A DNA stretch of 64,000 nucleotides from an uncultured Fibrobacterota bacterium (GCA_963753345.1 CAVWBU010000041.1:32001-96000), one strand, 5' to 3'. Positions 48,883 through 56,464 are shown, counted from the stretch's first letter. Notes: generated by a model from the sequence alone, not told the origin. Numbers and translations: made by a program.

Positions 48883-50181
48883 TTGTCAATAACCTCCCCT
48901 ACCCTTCTTCTCATCACGGCATCTTCCCCGGAAATCCAAAGGGTACGGCGGCCGCGCGTGCTCAATTTTCAGCAGATCACCATGCCCTATCTCGCCGCCT
49001 TTGCGCCGCCTCACTGGACTGTGCGCCACGTGGACGAGGCCGTGGAACCGGTCGATTTTGAAGCAGCCGCCGATGTGGTTGCGATCACCCTTCACACGCC
49101 GAGCGCGCCCCACGCATACGGCCTCGCCGACCGGTTCCGCCTGCGCGGAACAACCGTGGTGCTGGGCGGACCCCATGTCACCCTGATGCCCGACGAAGCG
49201 CAGGCCCACGCGGACGCGATCTTTTTGGGAGAGGCCGAAGAGAACTGGCCGCAGTTTCTTGCCGAATACAATGCACGCAAGTTCCGGCAGCGCTATTATT
49301 CCGCCGAGCCTCCTCTGCTCGATCATGCGCCGATGGCCCGCAAGGATCTGTTTCACCGGCGCGATTATACGGCCGGGGTCCTGTTCGCCGGACGCGGCTG
49401 TCCGCACCAATGCGATTTCTGCGCCATTGCGGTGATGTATCACGGCCGTATGCGCATGCGGTCGGTGGATGACATTGCCCGCGAATATGCTTCCTTCCAC
49501 GGCAAAGTGATCATCCTGTGGGACGACAATATCGCGGCTGACATTGAGTTCGCCAAAAAGCTGTTTCGGGCCCTCGCTCCCCACAGAAAATGGTGGAGCA
49601 GCCAGGCAAGCATTCATGCGGCCGACGATGACGAGTTCCTCGACCTGGCCGCCCGCAGCGGATGTAAGCAGCTGTTCATCGGATTGGAGTCGATATGCCA
49701 GGCAAGCATGAATGAAGTCTCAAAAGGATTCAATCGCGTGGACGACTACGGCCGAGCGATCGAGCGGATTCATTCCCACGGCATTGCCGTGCAGGCGGGT
49801 ATCGTGTTCGGATTTGACAATGATGCGGAATCGGTCTTCGGCGAGACCCTCGATTTCCTTGAGGCCGCTGGCGTGCAGAATGCGACATTCAACATTCTTA
49901 CGCCCTACCCCGCGACGCCTTTGTACCGCCGCCTGGAAGCACAAAACCGGATCCTGACCCGCGATTGGACAAAGTATAACGGCCGTGAGGATGTGGTGTT
50001 CTTGCCCCGGCGCATGAGTCCGGAGATTTTGCTGGAAGGGTACCGGTACGCAAACCGGCGGTTCTATTCTCCGAAGAGCATCGGGCGGCGCCTGTCGCGG
50101 TCGCCGGTGGGGCTGTGGTGGACCTTGCCGGTGAACCTTGCATACTCACTTGCACTGTGGTATTCGGGGCCAAAGCCGTGA
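48883..50181 (+). CDS. B12-binding-domain radical SAM protein
   Basis: VLGGPHVT, GEAE, RGCPHQCDFC, DDN, IGLES, TPYP. Confidence 0.92.
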   Translation: MSITSPTLLLITASSPEIQRVRRPRVLNFQQITMPYLAAFAPPHWTVRHVDEAVEPVDFEAAADVVAITLHTPSAPHAYGLADRFRLRGTTVVLGGPHVTLMPDEAQAHADAIFLGEAEENWPQFLAEYNARKFRQRYYSAEPPLLDHAPMARKDLFHRRDYTAGVLFAGRGCPHQCDFCAIAVMYHGRMRMRSVDDIAREYASFHGKVIILWDDNIAADIEFAKKLFRALAPHRKWWSSQASIHAADDDEFLDLAARSGCKQLFIGLESICQASMNEVSKGFNRVDDYGRAIERIHSHGIAVQAGIVFGFDNDAESVFGETLDFLEAAGVQNATFNILTPYPATPLYRRLEAQNRILTRDWTKYNGREDVVFLPRRMSPEILLEGYRYANRRFYSPKSIGRRLSRSPVGLWWTLPVNLAYSLALWYSGPKP

Positions 50182-50290: not shown

Positions 50291-50320
50291 AAAAGCCGCC
50301 GTGACTTCCCGGCGGCTTTC
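50291..50320. terminator. Bidirectional terminator
   Basis: AAAAGCCGCCG...CGGCGGCTTT(T/C) between convergent genes. Confidence 0.75.
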
Positions 50321-50339: not shown

Positions 50340-51074
50340 CTATCTCGGCAGCATGGAAAGCGGAGATCGGGGACCGGCAAGCATTTTGGCCGCCGGATTC
50401 TGAAGCTTGTACTCTTGCCAGGTGTTCCACAGGTGGCACGCGCTGCAGAGGCCGGGGTCGAACACTCCGTTGATGTGCGTCGCGGTATCCACGGTGGCGG
50501 ATGCCATGTTGTAGGCGCCGCCGTGGCAATTGTAGCATTTGTTGACATTGCCGCCCACGAGAGGCGTGCCCGTCGCGGGATACCGCTTGAGCGCATGGCC
50601 GAAGTGGAACGTGTAAATGCTTGTGGAATCCGCGGTGTTGGTCGAAAGATTGTGGCACGCGCCGCACGACCTGTCGATCGAGTCGGCGTTCCACGCGACC
50701 GTTGCGTGCGTCCCCTGCGGAATGCCGCCGTGGCAGTACACATTGCTGCACTGCATGGTTGATTTATCGTAAGCCGCCTTTCCGCTGTCGTTCCAGGGAG
50801 GGGTGAAAACAACGTCGGTGTCGCCGTTCATGTGCGTAACGTTATTGACGGAAAAGATGTCACGTGCGCTGTCCGCCTCGTATCCCGCATGGCAATACGA
50901 ACAGCGGTACCCCAGCGAGTCGACATGGTACAGATGCGCCCGGTCCCTGGGAGGCAGGTCGTGGCACAGGCCGCAGGTCCTGGCGGACACTACTTCCGGA
51001 GCTTCCGCGCGCTCGCTGCAGCCGGTGACGGCCAGAGCGGCGACTGCCGCCGCCATGCAAAGTGTTTTTCTCAT
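50340..51074 (-). CDS. Multiheme c-type cytochrome lipoprotein (CxxxxCH/CxxCH type, 6 heme motifs)
   Basis: Lipobox AVTGC; CGLCH, CSYCH, CSNVYCH, CGACH, CYNCH, CSACH; ATGA overlap with the upstream gene. Confidence 0.88.
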   Translation of the reverse strand: MRKTLCMAAAVAALAVTGCSERAEAPEVVSARTCGLCHDLPPRDRAHLYHVDSLGYRCSYCHAGYEADSARDIFSVNNVTHMNGDTDVVFTPPWNDSGKAAYDKSTMQCSNVYCHGGIPQGTHATVAWNADSIDRSCGACHNLSTNTADSTSIYTFHFGHALKRYPATGTPLVGGNVNKCYNCHGGAYNMASATVDTATHINGVFDPGLCSACHLWNTWQEYKLQNPAAKMLAGPRSPLSMLPR

Positions 51075-51976
51075 CGCAGCCTGTTTTCGTGACATTGAGA
51101 GCAGAAATTCCTTGTCTCGTGACACATTACGCAATTGGAAATCCCCATCCGCACATCGTTGCCGTGCATAAACCGGTATCCCGGCGGATGGATACGGCAG
51201 GCCGTCTGGCCTAGGTGGCACCGGTCGCATTCCTGTTTGTCGTGACACTGCATGCATTCCGCCTTCCCGTACTTGGCCTCCATGCCGTGGCCGTATCGCC
51301 CCACCCACAGGTAGGTGTGCGTCTTCGGCTTGATCTGCGCGACATCGTTGTGGCACACCGCGCACTGGCCCGACGCCTTGCGGTCCTCGTGGCAGTAGAG
51401 GCACGTTTTCATGGGAGGATAGTCGTCGTGCCGCATCCACTGGCCGCGCTGGGGCTCCGCATGGCAGTAGCGGCAGTCCTTTATGCGGGCGTAATGCTTC
51501 GCATGAGAGAATTTAATCTTGAAAAGGTCGGCCTGCATGGACTTTTTTTCCGGAATTTTGTGGCAGCTCGTGCAGCTCATGTCCATGTTGAGCCGGACTT
51601 GACATACGCCGAATCCCTTGTGCATGGTTTCCATGCCCAAAACGCCTTTGTGGCACTGGCTGCATTGCTTGATGCGGCTGTCGTTGCCCTTGCGGTGATG
51701 GCACGTGACGCACGAAATGCCGGCCTTCTCGAACCCCCGGTGCGACATTACGACTGGCCCCGGCGTCCAGCCGACCTTGACGGCGGAGAGACCCGTGTCT
51801 TTTGCGGTCACGAACGAATCCACCGAGGTGACGATGACCGTGTCGGTGGTAATGGAATCGTGGAAGAAGACATCGAGCTGGGAATATCCGGGCCGCGCCG
51901 ACGAAAGCACCATCATGCATGCCGCGAAAGCGACAAAGGAGAACGTCATTGTCGAAGTACAGCTGGGTTGTGTCAT
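51071..51976 (-). CDS. Periplasmic multiheme cytochrome c (c3-like; 10 CxxCH plus one degenerate site)
   Basis: CVTCH, CSQCH, CTSCH, CRYCH, CLYCH, CAVCH, CMQCH, CDRCH, CVMCH, CSQCH; FSHAKH. Confidence 0.9.
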   Translation of the reverse strand: MTQPSCTSTMTFSFVAFAACMMVLSSARPGYSQLDVFFHDSITTDTVIVTSVDSFVTAKDTGLSAVKVGWTPGPVVMSHRGFEKAGISCVTCHHRKGNDSRIKQCSQCHKGVLGMETMHKGFGVCQVRLNMDMSCTSCHKIPEKKSMQADLFKIKFSHAKHYARIKDCRYCHAEPQRGQWMRHDDYPPMKTCLYCHEDRKASGQCAVCHNDVAQIKPKTHTYLWVGRYGHGMEAKYGKAECMQCHDKQECDRCHLGQTACRIHPPGYRFMHGNDVRMGISNCVMCHETRNFCSQCHENRLR

Positions 51977-51977
51977 A

Positions 51978-53276
51978 TCACTTCACTTTGACCGGGACAG
52001 GGGGCTGGCCCGACTGCCAGAACCCGTGAAAATTGAAACGGGACATGAACATGACGCGAAAATCGCTTTTGTAATAGTCGTTCACCAGATACTCCACCTG
52101 CGGCTCCAGCACAAGACTCACCACCGGCGTGAGCCACGGAACGAACCACCGGCAAAAGGCCAGCGTTGTATAGGCATTGCGCCAGTCGGTTACGAGCAGC
52201 GTCTTGTACCGGTCGAACTGGAACGCCGCCCCTATATCGAAGACCTGGGCGTAGGCAAACGTGTAGCCCGGAACGATTTCATAGGTGGTGCCGTGGACGC
52301 CGGTGTTTACGTCGAGCCGCAGCGATGCGCCCTTTGCCAGAAGATTGCAACTCGCCAGGTGGTCTGTTCCCTCGCCGAACGCCCTCAGCGAATACGCGCC
52401 GAGAAACGAAACATCGCGCAGGAAGCCCAGGCCGATCACCATGCCGCCTTCGTTGTACTTGTCAAGGACCAACCGTTCGTAATAGTTGACCGAATCTATC
52501 TGACTTGCCCGGCCCGCGGCATGAATGGCAAGGTGGAGCATGTCCCAGCGCACGAGGCCTGCCTCGAGGTAGTATTCGTCAAGGGTTTGTGACGTGACGT
52601 CATAGCGGACATGGCCACGGACGCCCACGACATGGCCGATGTCGGACCGCAGGCTCGCGGCGGCTCGGTAGTGGCGGTCGAGATCGGAGTCCTGCTTGTC
52701 GGCCGAGACGCCCAATCCCACTTCGGTCCCGCGCAGGAAGCGCGCGCTGCCGTAGAAGCCCGCCTGCACTCTTTTCGGATCGAGGCTCGCGATGCTGTCG
52801 GAATACCTCGACGGCGTGGCCGTGCCCCCGAACGCATAGAGCGAAAGCACCTTGCCCGCATCGTAGCCGAGGCTGAGCCCGTCGAGATAGCCGGCGTCCA
52901 GGGCAAAGGTGTTGACAAACTGTCTGCCGAGGCTCGCGCTGAGTCCCAGCGGTTCGTGGGTCCAGTCGAGGCTGGTTGAGCGGAGCTCGTACTGCTTGGG
53001 CATGCCGCTCGTCTTGTCGTTGGTGACGCTCACATCGGACGAAAACGAAAGCGCCGATGCTCCCGGGTTGCGGACCGCAAGACCCACGTCCTCGTAGAAA
53101 TTGTTCCGCCTGGCCGTTGCGCTGGATACCGTATCTACCCTGTCGTCCCTGGCATAGTAGGTGTTGCCTTCGTAAACGTTGAGCGAAACCCCGAAGACGG
53201 CGGAACAGACGGCAAGAAAAACGGCAAGGACGGCGCCTGGTTTTCCGCGGGTGCAATTGCGGCAGCGCATCAGCAT
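51978..53276 (-). CDS. Putative outer-membrane beta-barrel (porin-like)
   Basis: Signal peptide; about 430 aa of alternating hydrophobic/polar strands, SLGRQF...LDGLSL motif; lies between hydrogenase and cytochromes. Confidence 0.7.
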   Translation of the reverse strand: MLMRCRNCTRGKPGAVLAVFLAVCSAVFGVSLNVYEGNTYYARDDRVDTVSSATARRNNFYEDVGLAVRNPGASALSFSSDVSVTNDKTSGMPKQYELRSTSLDWTHEPLGLSASLGRQFVNTFALDAGYLDGLSLGYDAGKVLSLYAFGGTATPSRYSDSIASLDPKRVQAGFYGSARFLRGTEVGLGVSADKQDSDLDRHYRAAASLRSDIGHVVGVRGHVRYDVTSQTLDEYYLEAGLVRWDMLHLAIHAAGRASQIDSVNYYERLVLDKYNEGGMVIGLGFLRDVSFLGAYSLRAFGEGTDHLASCNLLAKGASLRLDVNTGVHGTTYEIVPGYTFAYAQVFDIGAAFQFDRYKTLLVTDWRNAYTTLAFCRWFVPWLTPVVSLVLEPQVEYLVNDYYKSDFRVMFMSRFNFHGFWQSGQPPVPVKVK

Positions 53277-53284
53277 GCATGCCC

Positions 53285-54853
53285 CTAGCATACCCTGAAC
53301 CTCGCTATTTCCGCGCCCGCCTTTGCGCAGTGAATGGCGCATGCAAGGCATGGGTCGAATGTCCTCACCACCCTCGCGGCCTCCATGGGGTTTTTCTCGT
53401 CCACTACCGGCGTGCCGGCGAGCGCCTGCTCCATGGGGCCGGCCACGCCATTGTCGTCCCTCGGGGACGCATTCCACGTTGTCGGCACAATGCACTGGTA
53501 GCGGGCAATTTTTCCGTTTTTCACCGAAATCCAGTGGCCGAGCGCTCCGCGCGGCGCCTCGCCCAGGCCCGCCCCCTCTCCGCTTTCGGGAACGGCGCAC
53601 TCCTGTCTCGGTCTTCCGCCTTCTTCTATTTCGTCAAGCCAGCCTGAGATCTTCTTGCACAGGAGCCTGCTCTCCACGGCCCTTGCCGCGTGTCTGCCGA
53701 TTGCGGACTGTAGTTTTGCAAGCGTGAGGCCTGTGGCGGCAAGGAGCGCATCGACCTCTCGCCGTATGTCCACACTGCCTGCCGTGTATCCCACCATCAT
53801 GCGTGCCAGAGGCCCAACCTCCATCGGCTTGCCTCCGTACCGGGGCGCCTTTATCCACGTATATGCTCCGGCCTTGTCGACAGAGGGCTCGGTCTGCCCC
53901 TGCGACGGATGAAGGTTCGTTGCCGAGGAATAGCGCGAGTGCAGGACCTGCTCGGTTATCCTGGTCTGGTCGAATGCCACTCGTTTTCCCTCCGACACGA
54001 TGCCACGCGGAAAGTAAAGGTCTGCAGTCTCGGGACCGTCGGGAAATTCCCCGTAGGCAAGAAAATCGCCGAACCGGCCGAGCTCCGCATACCCGGGAAG
54101 CGACTTCGCGAGCGCAATCACGTCGGGCACATAGGCGAAATTGACAAATTCGCCTATTTCCGCAAGAATGGTCCTGGCGGACGCTACGGCCGCCTTGTCG
54201 GGCGTCTGCGCCACACCGCCGGGCACAAGCCCGATTGCATGCGGGACCCTTCCCGCGAACAGCGCCACGAGCCGGTGCGCCTTCATGCGTATGTCAAGCG
54301 CCTTTACGTAGTGCGCTATCGCGGCGATGTTGAACGCAGTGTCCTTTATGTAGAAGCCTTCTCCGGCGTACCTCGGCAGAAACGGCGCACACGCCGTAGC
54401 AGCTTCGACACCGGTCTTCTTTTCCGAAAGTTCGCTCTTCGCCCATGCCTTGAGATACAGGAGCTTCTCGTCGTTTCCGGAATATGCGAGGATCGCAGTG
54501 ATATCGACGTAGTCGAGCGCGGCTAGATGATAGAAGTGCAGGATATGCGACTGCAGAAAGTTGGACGCCAGCGCAAGGTTTCTCAGGAGCCGCCCGTTCT
54601 TGTTGGGCACGACCCCACAGGCGGTTTCCACGCACCGCGACGATTCGATGCCGTGTGAAACAGGGCATACGCCGCAGATGCGCTGCGCTATCTGCACCGC
54701 GTCGAAGGGATGCCTTCCGATAAGGATCTGCTCGAAGCCGCGGAACATGTCGCCCCGCATGCGCGCCGACGTAACCCTGCCGGCATCAACGTCGAGCTCC
54801 ACCGACAGGTGGCCTTCAATGCGGGTGATGGGATCGATGACGATTTTCGACAT
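53285..54853 (-). CDS. [NiFe] hydrogenase large subunit (group 1, 1a-like)
   Basis: DPITRIEGH, L1 QRICGVCPVSH, APRG.LGHW, VPTTWN, L2 FDPCLACAIH plus a cleavable C-terminal extension. Confidence 0.96.
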   Translation of the reverse strand: MSKIVIDPITRIEGHLSVELDVDAGRVTSARMRGDMFRGFEQILIGRHPFDAVQIAQRICGVCPVSHGIESSRCVETACGVVPNKNGRLLRNLALASNFLQSHILHFYHLAALDYVDITAILAYSGNDEKLLYLKAWAKSELSEKKTGVEAATACAPFLPRYAGEGFYIKDTAFNIAAIAHYVKALDIRMKAHRLVALFAGRVPHAIGLVPGGVAQTPDKAAVASARTILAEIGEFVNFAYVPDVIALAKSLPGYAELGRFGDFLAYGEFPDGPETADLYFPRGIVSEGKRVAFDQTRITEQVLHSRYSSATNLHPSQGQTEPSVDKAGAYTWIKAPRYGGKPMEVGPLARMMVGYTAGSVDIRREVDALLAATGLTLAKLQSAIGRHAARAVESRLLCKKISGWLDEIEEGGRPRQECAVPESGEGAGLGEAPRGALGHWISVKNGKIARYQCIVPTTWNASPRDDNGVAGPMEQALAGTPVVDEKNPMEAARVVRTFDPCLACAIHCAKAGAEIARFRVC

Positions 54854-54870
54854 AATATTCTTTAGCTACG

Positions 54871-55040
54871 AGTTGACAGTTGACGGTTGACAGTTGACGG
54901 CAAGAATCATGTGACAATAACGACCACGTGCAAGCAAGATACACCGCTCCGGTTACAAATTGGAAATTGCAGGAACAACTTCATTCGGAATTTTGTACTT
55001 TGCTTTCAACTGAAAACTGTCAACCGTCAACTGTCAACTT
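54871..55040. repeat. Inverted pair of 7-mer tandem arrays
   Basis: GTTGACR x4 (54872-54900) and the complementary YGTCAAC array (about 55006-55040) flank about 105 bp between the hydrogenase subunit genes. Confidence 0.75.
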
Positions 55041-55046
55041 GTTTGT

Positions 55047-55961
55047 TTATGCCTTCTTCGCCGTAAACAACCCCCGCTCGCCCGTGTCCGGGAACACCGG
55101 CTCAGTGCAGCCGATGCACCCGGCGCCGCACCCCGTGCACGAATTGACGCCGAGCCATTTGCGGACGGGAATGTCGCAGTTCGAATCAATGCCGAGGCAC
55201 CCGAGCTTGTACAGGCAGCCCTTGTCGCCCCAGGAGAGCGCGAACTCGTTCTTCCGGTATTCCTGGAGGTGTTCGCATTTGTCGTGCACCGTGGTCTTGA
55301 AATACAAAAGCGGCCTGCCGTACGCGTCGAGCTTGAGCCTCTTGCCCATAATAAGGTGCACCAGACTGCCGATGATCCAGTCCGGGTGCGCAGGGCAGCC
55401 GGGAATGTTGATCTGTTTTACGCCGGGCAGCACGCCCCACACCGGCATGGCGCCTGTGGGGTTTTCCCCGCCGCTCCGCATGCGCGCCGCGGGAATGCAG
55501 CCGTAGGCTGCGCAGGTCCCCACGGCCACCACCGCCTTCGCGTTCTTCGCAAGGAGCCCGACCCACTCGCGCACGCCGCGCGGTTTTCCGTTCACCTCGC
55601 CGATGGTGCAGAACGTCTCGGATTTTGCCGGAATGGAACCTTCGACCACCAGCACGTAGTTCTTTTTGCCTTCGTCAAGCGTTTTAAGAAGGATGTCGAT
55701 GGCGGTGTCGCCCGTGGCCGTGGAAAGCGTCTGGTGGAAGTGGAGGCTGATATGGTTGGTGATGAGCGTCGCGATGTCCGGGTCGCCGGCGTTGAGCAGG
55801 GACACCGAGTCGCCGGAGCAGCTCTGTCCCTGGAGCCAGATGACTGGGGTCCGCTTTGAGGCCTTGCCCAGGGTGATCTTCGTGCCGGCGAGCACGACTT
55901 CCGGAAACGCCAGAAGCGCGGTTGCGCCGCCCACGATGCGGATGAATTCTCTTCTGTTCAC
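55047..55961 (-). CDS. [NiFe] hydrogenase small subunit, Tat-exported, no membrane anchor
   Basis: NRREFI signal; WLQGQSCSGD, VEGSIP, GTCAAYG, PGCP, HDKC, GCLYKLGC, CIGC. Confidence 0.95.
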   Translation of the reverse strand: MNRREFIRIVGGATALLAFPEVVLAGTKITLGKASKRTPVIWLQGQSCSGDSVSLLNAGDPDIATLITNHISLHFHQTLSTATGDTAIDILLKTLDEGKKNYVLVVEGSIPAKSETFCTIGEVNGKPRGVREWVGLLAKNAKAVVAVGTCAAYGCIPAARMRSGGENPTGAMPVWGVLPGVKQINIPGCPAHPDWIIGSLVHLIMGKRLKLDAYGRPLLYFKTTVHDKCEHLQEYRKNEFALSWGDKGCLYKLGCLGIDSNCDIPVRKWLGVNSCTGCGAGCIGCTEPVFPDTGERGLFTAKKA

Positions 55962-56464
55962 GTGGCTGAAGTTTCCCCGCCGGTTCCCAGCGTCCCCGTT
56001 GATTCCTGATATTCGGCAATAATCGTTTGAACCATTGCAACGACCCTCGGCAGGACCGCTCTCACCGCCTGCGTCGGCTCCGGGTTCATGCTCTCTGCAT
56101 CGGCCGGGACAATCCCCAGAATCTCCGTACGCGGCCGTTCTCCCAGCAGACGCACGGCGGAAAGCGCATCGCGGATCCCCGCCTCGTGAACCGAAAACAT
56201 GCCGTCTGTTGTATTTGTCAAATACGATGCCGGGAACCTGAAAACGCTGCCGGGCGGCGCATTCGTTTTAAGGGCGTCAATCACCAGAATGCGCACCCTC
56301 CCGGAAATCAAGGCCGGCAGGTCGAGTCCGTTTGCGCCCGCGTCAACCGCCTCAACCCCGTCGGGCAGTCGCCCCGAGTCGAGGAGCAGGTTAACCGCAT
56401 GAACTCCGGCGCCGTCGTCGGAACGAAGCATATTCCCCATTCCCAGGATAAGCACAGGTTTCAT
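55958..56464 (-). CDS. Hydrogenase maturation protease
   Basis: LGMGN.L.SDDGAG, VDAG, IDA, SVHE. Confidence 0.93.
   Translation of the reverse strand: MKPVLILGMGNMLRSDDGAGVHAVNLLLDSGRLPDGVEAVDAGANGLDLPALISGRVRILVIDALKTNAPPGSVFRFPASYLTNTTDGMFSVHEAGIRDALSAVRLLGERPRTEILGIVPADAESMNPEPTQAVRAVLPRVVAMVQTIIAEYQESTGTLGTGGETSAT

Follow-up and report, generated by a model that had tools for sequence, protein, structure and literature searches.

Results

Organization of the six-gene operon

The stretch of DNA considered here (the window) is a 64,000-nucleotide (nt) piece of a draft genome from an uncultured Fibrobacterota bacterium (GCA_963753345.1, CAVWBU010000041.1:32001-96000), and the system in question is a set of six open reading frames (ORFs) that run along its minus strand from 56464 to 50340. 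In this set, the genes of a putatively periplasmic [NiFe]-hydrogenase are followed directly by genes for a predicted outer-membrane beta-barrel, a decahaem cytochrome (cyt10) and a hexahaem lipoprotein cytochrome (cyt6), and we propose that the six products form a self-contained route along which electrons from H2 could reach an acceptor outside the cell. The initial annotation, which a model had made from the sequence, listed six same-strand and mostly overlapping or abutting genes in the order protease, small subunit, large subunit, barrel-like protein, 10-heme cytochrome and 6-heme cytochrome. Every one of these genes was located on the minus strand in that order, and all six reading frames are intact (Table 1).

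The junctions between the genes are tight. The protease and small-subunit genes overlap by 4 nt, the barrel and cyt10 genes are separated by 1 nt, and the cyt10 and cyt6 genes overlap in the sequence ATGA. The large-subunit and barrel genes lie 8 nt apart and would overlap instead if the barrel started at 53291, which would give a protein of 437 amino acids (aa); an alternative start of cyt6 at 51095 would give 251 aa. The only wide junction in the operon is a 193-nt spacer between the genes of the small and large subunits. A terminator-like hairpin, the strongest such site on the minus strand between 50000 and 57000, stands 20 nt past the stop codon of cyt6. The overlapping or abutting genes and the sole strong terminator after the last gene fit a single transcription unit. 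A promoter scan, which is uninformative for this phylum, placed nothing resembling a sigma-70 site ahead of the protease gene and a single weak promoter-like site at the 3' end of the spacer.

The spacer itself is a near-perfect hairpin built of GTTGACR heptamers with a stem of about 25 bp, and its folding energy is -70.1 kcal/mol (z -7.6 against shuffled sequences). One 22-nt arm of the repeat has 83 copies in the genome at no more than 3 mismatches; thus, the spacer appears to be a dispersed genomic repeat that was inserted inside the operon. At the same junction, the spacer is short in a close relative (locus L005) and of similar length in a related locus (L006).

Table 1. Positions of the operon genes and associated features, counted from the first nucleotide of the window
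Feature	Position	Strand	Evidence or remark
HyaD/HybD-type hydrogenase maturation endopeptidase, 168 aa	55958..56464	-	operon gene 1; PF01750, TIGR00072
[NiFe]-hydrogenase small subunit, 304 aa	55047..55961	-	Tat signal RREFI; PF01058 and PF14720
Spacer between small- and large-subunit genes, 193 nt	54854..55046	-	GTTGACR heptamers arranged as a long inverted repeat
[NiFe]-hydrogenase large subunit, 522 aa, Cys-type	53285..54853	-	PF00374; C-terminal extension for protease
Predicted outer-membrane beta-barrel, ~22 strands, plugless, 432 aa	51978..53276	-	signal peptide; AlphaFold2 model, Foldseek, VIA-align
Periplasmic decahaem cytochrome c (cyt10), 301 aa	51071..51976	-	signal peptide, 10 CxxCH
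Lost haem site in cyt10, residues 122-126 FGVCQ	51599..51613	-	alignments of homologues
Hexahaem lipoprotein cytochrome c (cyt6), 244 aa	50340..51074	-	lipobox LAVTG|C; presumed outer-surface component
Intrinsic terminator-like hairpin closing the operon	50291..50320	-	11-bp stem, 7 GC pairs, then T run

The hydrogenase resembles soluble periplasmic enzymes of Desulfovibrio

The maturation protease matches PF01750 (59 bits) and TIGR00072 (117.8 bits), the small subunit matches TIGR00391 (209 bits against a cut-off of 179.5), and the large subunit matches PF00374 (492 bits) and NF033181 (631.8 bits against a cut-off of 600). Both nickel-binding motifs of the large subunit are present as RICGVCPVSH and DPCLACAIH. 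The nearest solved relatives of both subunits are periplasmic enzymes of Desulfovibrio and Desulfomicrobium (E values of about 1e-115 for the large and about 1e-54 for the small subunit), and the closest solved large subunits include [NiFe] and [NiFeSe] enzymes at nearly equal scores. Assignment to the [NiFeSe] enzymes was tried and rejected, because the frame is open, the DPCLAC motif carries Cys, and the models NF045518 and NF045520 reached 507 and 257 bits where 780 and 470 are needed.

The small subunit aligns to the end of both proteins with its soluble periplasmic NiFeSe and NiFe relatives (for example to residue 310 of 317 in 2wpn_A), and because its end coincides with that of the soluble Desulfovibrio small subunits, a C-terminal membrane anchor is absent. 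The initial annotation had described a Tat-exported small subunit without a membrane anchor, and this description agrees with the RREFI motif and with a chain that terminates, as 2wpn_A does, with the distal-cluster domain. Its further remark that a cytochrome b subunit is missing also stood: no cytochrome b gene was found in the operon, and across the genome the only PF01292 match is below the threshold (21.1 against 30.1 bits) and contains an internal stop. By its motifs and the lack of an anchor, the enzyme is classified as a group 1 periplasmic uptake hydrogenase of the soluble, Tat-exported Desulfovibrio type.

A predicted barrel with a cytochrome modelled in its lumen

The 432-aa protein encoded downstream of the large subunit has no Pfam or NCBIfam match (Pfam searched to an E value of 0.01). 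With 17 relatives as input, AlphaFold2 produced an all-beta model in which 22 long strands can be counted; its mean predicted local distance difference test (pLDDT) value is 71.7 and its predicted template modelling score (pTM) is 0.62. Searched against the Protein Data Bank (PDB) with Foldseek, it gave at least 279 matches at E <=0.001, and among the matches listed all are outer-membrane barrels; the top ones (FimD usher, MOMP, OprD, AlgE) point to an outer-membrane barrel and to no single family. A structural comparison with VIA-align that covered 48,161 chains placed 22-strand TonB-dependent barrels at the top with Z values of 16-18 (SusC-like 5t3r_D, Z 18.0; BtuB, Z 17.1), the similarity being to their barrel part only, and MtrB of the Mtr complex (6r2q_B) followed at rank 13 with Z 15.5 and a root mean square deviation of 4.6 over 326 residues. 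Since 432 aa are too few for a plug, the lumen would be open unless it is otherwise filled. The product thus models as a transmembrane outer-membrane beta-barrel of about 22 strands, which is in line with the beta-barrel-like protein that the initial annotation had read from the sequence and had suggested should be examined by structure prediction.

Only 19 near relatives of this barrel were found among 5.8 billion clustered proteins, one of them labelled as a Chitinivibrionales protein, and a profile search returned 67 representatives at E <=0.001 among 1.84 billion proteins. A profile search that also returns names gave 46 matches, all called "hypothetical protein" and coming from Fibrobacterota-like, Zixibacteria and Terriglobales metagenome-assembled genomes (MAGs). 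No named Geobacter protein is among the 19 near or the 46 profile matches, a result that speaks for these two sets of matches only.

Complex prediction with the mature barrel and mature cyt10 gave scores of 0.69, 0.63 and 0.60 (median 0.63), and all three controls gave 0.00. Of 157 solved complexes, 116 reach the mark for such predictions, as do 2 of 215 mismatched pairs, counts that are only a rough guide to the score because the alignments were self-supplied. The three runs share at least 64% of their contacts. On the barrel side, the confident contacts involve every second residue of nearly all strands (29, 31, 33, 35 and so on up to 417-421), and because they alternate, they are read as facing the lumen; on the side of cyt10, contacts with the barrel are confined to residues 194-292. 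In this model the C-terminal third of cyt10 is threaded through the barrel and its N-terminal c3-like domain stays outside, which supports binding and does not show it. The pairing of the barrel with the 10-heme protein that the initial annotation had put forward for modelling returned a cytochrome placed in the lumen.

The two cytochromes

The decahaem cytochrome appears to consist of two parts, a c3-like region of residues ~43-144 and a region of residues ~150-301 that is predicted to sit in the barrel. PF02085 matches residues 71-147 with 47 bits, and PF14522 covers residues 155-209. A sequence search of the PDB returned short c7/c3-type domain matches only (best E value 1.8e-5). A much closer relative of the first part was found within the phylum: another Fibrobacterota genome (G294) encodes, next to its orthologous hydrogenase, a free tetrahaem c3 whose match to residues 43-144 (46% identity, E 4e-29) takes in an N-terminal extension. 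In an alignment of 21 family members, the five cyt10 proteins that are linked to a hydrogenase (those of the window, L005, L006, L021 and L022) have the N-terminal extension in common, as well as an additional haem motif at residue 105, and both are absent from the 16 unlinked copies. The idea that a c3 domain as such is unique to hydrogenase-linked cyt10 was rejected, as PF02085 matches 14 of the 21 members. Because of its homology to the c3 of G294 and its linkage to the hydrogenase, we read the N-terminal domain as the c3 partner of the hydrogenase, so that it is probably a docking module fused to a conduit cytochrome. The 10 CxxCH motifs that the initial annotation had counted are present, and its count can now be refined: members of the hydrogenase-linked clade carry 11 haem motifs, one of which the window copy has lost.

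The hexahaem cytochrome contains 5 CxxCH motifs and the longer motif CSNVYCH at residue 116, and this CxxxxCH motif is kept in all 24 homologues examined. It matches TIGR01904 (53.2 bits against a cut-off of 27) and PF09698 (27.2 against 21.7), and it reaches 22.9 bits with the MtrC/MtrF domain model PF22113, under the cut-off of 30. A sequence search of the PDB gave chance matches only. Its lipobox, its six haem motifs and the TIGR01904 match accord with the earlier description as a 6-heme lipoprotein cytochrome with a CxxxxCH motif, and the protein is presumed to lie on the outer face of the outer membrane.

Conservation of the module and its linkage to the hydrogenase

A survey of 296 Fibrobacterota species genomes was made with the barrel and with the large subunit as queries. 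The barrel family is present in 32 of the 296 genomes and in 0 of the 151 that make up the largest family (f13). The initial annotation did not associate this lineage with such conduits, an impression that these counts correct, as the module can hardly be called rare among Fibrobacterota. The 20 loci fetched around barrel matches contain 22 barrel genes, and in every case (22/22 genes, 20/20 loci) the next gene on the same strand encodes a cytochrome of 184-363 aa with 7-11 CxxCH motifs, which BLAST detected as a cyt10 homologue in 21 of the 22. The gene that follows this cytochrome encodes a CxxxxCH-type cytochrome in 18 of the 22, usually with a lipoprotein signal. The barrel, the periplasmic cytochrome and the lipoprotein cytochrome are a conserved module.

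A large subunit at least 58% identical to that of the window occurs in nine of the 296 genomes; five further genomes have a large subunit of another kind (41-42% identical) and no barrel match. In seven of the nine (G000, which is the genome of the window, G062, G064, G066, G011, G073 and G077), the barrel gene lies no more than 100 nt downstream of the hydrogenase on the same strand, so that the gene order which the initial annotation had proposed to look for in other genomes recurs among those with an orthologous hydrogenase. In G063, the hydrogenase and barrel genes are both at contig ends. In G294, which belongs to another family of the phylum and has a 58% identical large subunit, there is no module beside the hydrogenase; the gene of the free 130-aa tetrahaem c3 (L046:12613-13005, on G294:C34) precedes it, with the protease, small-subunit and large-subunit genes downstream. 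A barrel-cytochrome module does occur in this genome, on a different contig (L028).

The same arrangement is found in metagenomes. Three GenBank MAG contigs (labelled Chitinivibrionales, Fibrobacterota and Fibrobacteres) have the same gene order as far as they reach, and Joint Genome Institute (JGI) metagenome contigs hold nine loci with a cyt10 relative at least 43% identical, in which the full six-gene order is present at all six loci with enough upstream sequence; the remaining three are cut off upstream. A quick tree was drawn from 28 barrels; of the ten that are linked to a hydrogenase, nine group together, with a support of 85 in the Shimodaira-Hasegawa-like approximate likelihood ratio test (SH-aLRT). 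As regards a single origin of the hydrogenase linkage, the tree as drawn requires two changes, its well-supported branches allow one, and several of its branches are long.

Some Fibrobacterota genomes have two or three barrel modules in tandem. Many of the modules in the phylum lack a hydrogenase and stand beside genes for very large cytochromes, as at L020, L023, L025, L035 and L038 in other Fibrobacterota; one such cytochrome has 1196 aa with 27 CxxCH and 12 longer motifs, and others have 1075 aa with 22, 931 aa with 19 and 869 aa with 25 motifs. At L038:6646-7880 (G291:C19), the barrel gene is split into two overlapping frames of 189 and 222 aa, for which a frameshift or an assembly error is possible.

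Maturation systems, other hydrogenases and neighbouring genes

The assembly that contains the window (G000) is a 4.5-Mb draft, 94% complete and 4.8% contaminated. Cytochrome c maturation genes and hyp genes, which the initial annotation had named as things to look for elsewhere in the genome, are both present: ResB and CcsA (system II cytochrome c maturation) lie side by side on contig C26, and hypA, hypF, hypC, hypD and hypE adjoin the genes of a four-subunit cytoplasmic [NiFe]-hydrogenase of a group-3b-like kind. A six-gene Ech-like membrane hydrogenase is also encoded. The loci of these other hydrogenases are L044 (G000:C19:57000-76900) and L045 (G000:C34:66000-85900). No [FeFe]-hydrogenase was found in the draft genome; should the complete genome also lack one, this would be an uncommon trait in a fermenter.

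A stop-to-stop scan of the 4.5 Mb in six frames found cyt10 and cyt6 to be the only frames with three or more CxxCH motifs. Because no other protein detected has at least three haems, there appears to be no multihaem link from the module to the inner membrane. Three frames have two CxxCH motifs, namely two DHOR-type di-haem proteins and one protein that is no cytochrome. The two DHOR-type proteins are large (L065, G000:C32:89559-92363; L066, G000:C41:257484-259943), one of them has a type IX secretion sorting tail, and beyond this pair, cyt10 and cyt6, no c-type haem protein was detected.

The neighbours of the operon include genes of uronate and polysaccharide catabolism, namely GH88, KDG (2-keto-3-deoxygluconate) kinase and KDPG (2-keto-3-deoxy-6-phosphogluconate) aldolase, with a type IX secretion-sorted protein nearby, and these genes fit the polysaccharide-degrading lifestyle that had been suggested for the organism. 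A gene for a B12-binding radical SAM protein (48883-50181, plus strand) converges on the end of the operon; it adjoins the module in the closest relative (L004), is not there in L005 and L006, and has no evident link to the cytochromes.

Discussion

The gene content of the operon, the conserved module, its linkage to the hydrogenase in related genomes and the maturation systems of the host genome suggest how the six products could work together. The Tat-exported [NiFe]-hydrogenase, matured by its own protease, would oxidize H2 in the periplasm, and the distal Fe-S cluster of the small subunit would hand the electrons to the c3-like domain of cyt10, whose haems would carry them through the plugless barrel to cyt6 on the cell surface. 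The acceptor reached from cyt6 could be insoluble or large, for example a mineral of Fe(III) or Mn(IV), organic matter in humic or particulate form, or a partner cell. Such a route would involve neither a quinone nor cytochrome b nor an inner-membrane cytochrome.

Because the genome encodes Ech-type and group-3b-type hydrogenases that would form H2 on the cytoplasmic side, the operon most likely closes a hydrogen cycle. In such a cycle, fermentation electrons would leave the cytoplasm as H2 through the Ech-type and group-3b-type enzymes with consumption of cytoplasmic protons, and the H2 would be re-oxidized in the periplasm, where protons would be released outside and the electrons discarded outside the cell, so that fermentation would be relieved of hydrogen. 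We consider it reasonably probable that the operon encodes a chain complete in itself, leading from H2 to an acceptor outside the cell and probably serving hydrogen cycling in a fermenter. Within this proposal, our confidence is greater in an outer-membrane barrel-cytochrome complex that is functionally tied to the hydrogenase than in the hydrogen cycle, the nature of the acceptor or the direction in which electrons flow. A bolder version is conceivable, to which we give somewhat less than an even chance: an electron-transport chain that never touches the inner membrane, in a quinone-independent fermenter that conserves energy purely by hydrogen cycling, would make the Chitinivibrionales-like Fibrobacterota of anoxic soils and peats H2-consuming extracellular reducers that compete with methanogens for the H2 of their own fermentation.

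Several points weigh against the proposed chain. The barrel model is of moderate confidence, with only one of the five AlphaFold2 models above a pLDDT of 60, and in the complex model cyt10 is poorly folded (pLDDT 50-54) and has no haems modelled; some of the complex score may also stem from resemblance to MtrAB, a complex of solved structure. The absence of an [FeFe]-hydrogenase and of other multihaem cytochromes comes from a draft genome and is provisional. External H2 oxidized by this route alone moves no charge over the inner membrane, and the energetic benefit therefore depends on the proposed hydrogen cycle. There is also the lost haem site of cyt10, where residues 122-126 read FGVCQ in the window and CxxCH in all 20 other aligned homologues, and where comparison with the 93%-identical L004 shows two substitutions, TGC to TTC (Cys to Phe) and CAT to CAA (His to Gln). 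The entry domain, which is c3-like, could be weakened by this loss, and the wire could be weakened or interrupted in the window genome; the loss need not be fatal, because apparently intact members of the family have anything from 7 to 11 haems.

The lost haem also bears on the question of whether the cluster is decaying or inactive in this particular genome, in which case the hydrogenase may work and the conduit would be broken by the lost haem and the repeat insertion. The two substitutions are independent of each other and destroy a universally kept motif, and a dispersed repeat with a very stable hairpin splits the genes of the small and large subunits, as decay would have it. However, none of the six reading frames is interrupted, the other nine CxxCH motifs of cyt10 and all six motifs of cyt6 are intact, the haem number is variable among relatives as just described, and a spacer of similar length occurs in L006, so that we regard decay as quite improbable. 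The barrel invites another explanation, namely that there is no wire across the membrane, that the barrel is a diffusion porin for a small oxidant (a soluble Fe(III) chelate, small quinones or a sulfur compound), and that the cytochromes are periplasmic reductases which the hydrogenase reduces. Neither Pfam and NCBIfam nor the near and profile matches gave a sequence link to characterized conduit barrels, the structural matches include substrate-specific porins of the OprD/Occ and AlgE types, and the location of cyt6 is only predicted, all of which would suit a porin. On the other hand, some 22 strands without a plug are far wider than small solutes need, the complex model fills the lumen with residues 194-292 of cyt10 at a median score far from that of the controls (0.63 against 0.00), and a cytochrome of one family follows the barrel in 22 of 22 cases, which is the porin-cytochrome signature given in an earlier survey (PMC4245776). 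We therefore consider the diffusion porin unlikely, if a little less so than decay.

The direction of electron flow is fixed neither by the gene content nor by the complex model, and the conduit might thus run inward, with an external donor (reduced humics, Fe(0) or Fe(II) minerals, a cathode or a partner cell) feeding H2 formation in the periplasm. Hydrogenases of the Desulfovibrio type are reversible in vitro. Mtr-type conduits serve electron uptake in iron oxidizers, according to the same survey (PMC4245776). Nevertheless, H2 production needs donors near -400 mV, and a fermenter that already has Ech-like and group-3b-like H2 producers gains nothing obvious from one more. The nearest solved relatives of the enzyme act in H2 uptake together with c3, and we give inward flow only a slim chance.

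If electrons do flow outward from H2 as proposed, no simpler way of passing them from H2 to an acceptor outside the cell would be known, and hydrogen cycling in a fermenter would gain a concrete and testable form. A polysaccharide-degrading lineage of anoxic soils and peat would then join the organisms that divert hydrogen from methanogenesis. The six genes would likewise make an appealing building block where H2 is to be coupled to electrodes.

Comparison with known systems

In open-access full text, we found no account of a porin-cytochrome module that is joined to a hydrogenase operon, nor any of such modules in Fibrobacterota. The word "cytochrome" has 0 occurrences in the Chitinispirillum genome paper and "hydrogenase" has 0 occurrences in a 2025 survey of Desulfobacterota, and in the available part of the 2014 survey of porin-cytochrome (Pcc) clusters by Shi et al. 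(PMC4245776), a hydrogenase is named only in a reference. That survey extends across six phyla, among which Fibrobacterota is not listed in the part available, and it gives the rule that the porin-like gene is always accompanied by the gene of a periplasmic cytochrome and mostly also by that of an outer-membrane cytochrome (PMC4245776). By its predicted products, the present operon agrees with this definition of a Pcc gene cluster, as it has a barrel and a periplasmic cytochrome, with a lipoprotein cytochrome adjacent.

Among the characterized Pcc systems, those of Geobacter sulfurreducens (OmbB-OmaB-OmcB and Ext) are alike in that cyt6 carries the CxxxxCH/CxxCH domain that was first defined in Geobacter (TIGR01904). 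They differ in the number of haems, since the cyt10 family has 10-11 haems and a c3-like domain whereas the periplasmic cytochrome of Geobacter has 8, and the outer cytochrome has 6 haems here and 12 in Geobacter. Unlike the Geobacter systems, the module here lies inside a hydrogenase operon, and no other multihaem cytochrome was detected that could feed it from the quinone pool. MtrCAB of Shewanella (6R2Q) is similar in having a decahaem cytochrome within an outer-membrane barrel, as the model suggests here, and a lipoprotein cytochrome outside. However, the barrel of the window would form about 22 strands from 432 aa, whereas MtrB has 26 strands in a chain of 649 residues, and Mtr is fed from quinol via CymA and not from a hydrogenase. 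Membership in the MtrCAB, MtoAB and PioAB group was tried for both the barrel and cyt6 and rejected: despite a likeness of fold to MtrB (Z 15.5), the barrel has no Pfam family at E <=0.01 and is thus not placed in the MtrB/PioB family, and with PF22113 below its cut-off, cyt6 is not placed in the MtrC/OmcA family.

A more ecological likeness is to the sequence-divergent porin-cytochrome clusters of peat Acidobacteriota and Verrucomicrobiota, for which the authors propose the reduction of organic or particulate acceptors (bioRxiv 10.64898/2026.05.27.727921). In the part of that work available, the hosts are likewise degraders of organic matter in anoxic, acceptor-poor habitats; they differ in that their hydrogenases (groups 3c, 3d and 4e) are encoded elsewhere in the genomes, and Fibrobacterota go unmentioned there.

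The hydrogenase half of the operon has its closest parallel in the enzymes of Desulfovibrio and Desulfomicrobium (1frf, 1cc1, 2wpn, 4kl8), which are also soluble, Tat-exported and without cytochrome b, and which use a class III, c3-type (PF02085) acceptor. In sulfate reducers, the partner of the periplasmic hydrogenase is tetrahaem c3, which passes electrons to inner-membrane complexes for sulfate reduction in the cytoplasm, as stated in a published account (PMC5539420). Here, in contrast, the c3-like domain would be fused to the cytochrome of an outer-membrane conduit, and the electrons would leave the cell. To our knowledge, the known outer-membrane conduits are fed from the quinone pool via inner-membrane and periplasmic cytochromes, and the known Desulfovibrio-type periplasmic hydrogenases send their electrons inward. 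What is new compared with both is that a periplasmic hydrogenase is coupled directly, in one operon, to a porin-cytochrome module in a genome where no other multihaem cytochrome was detected, and that the coupling apparently extends to a fusion at the level of domains, with a c3 domain and a conduit cytochrome in one polypeptide.

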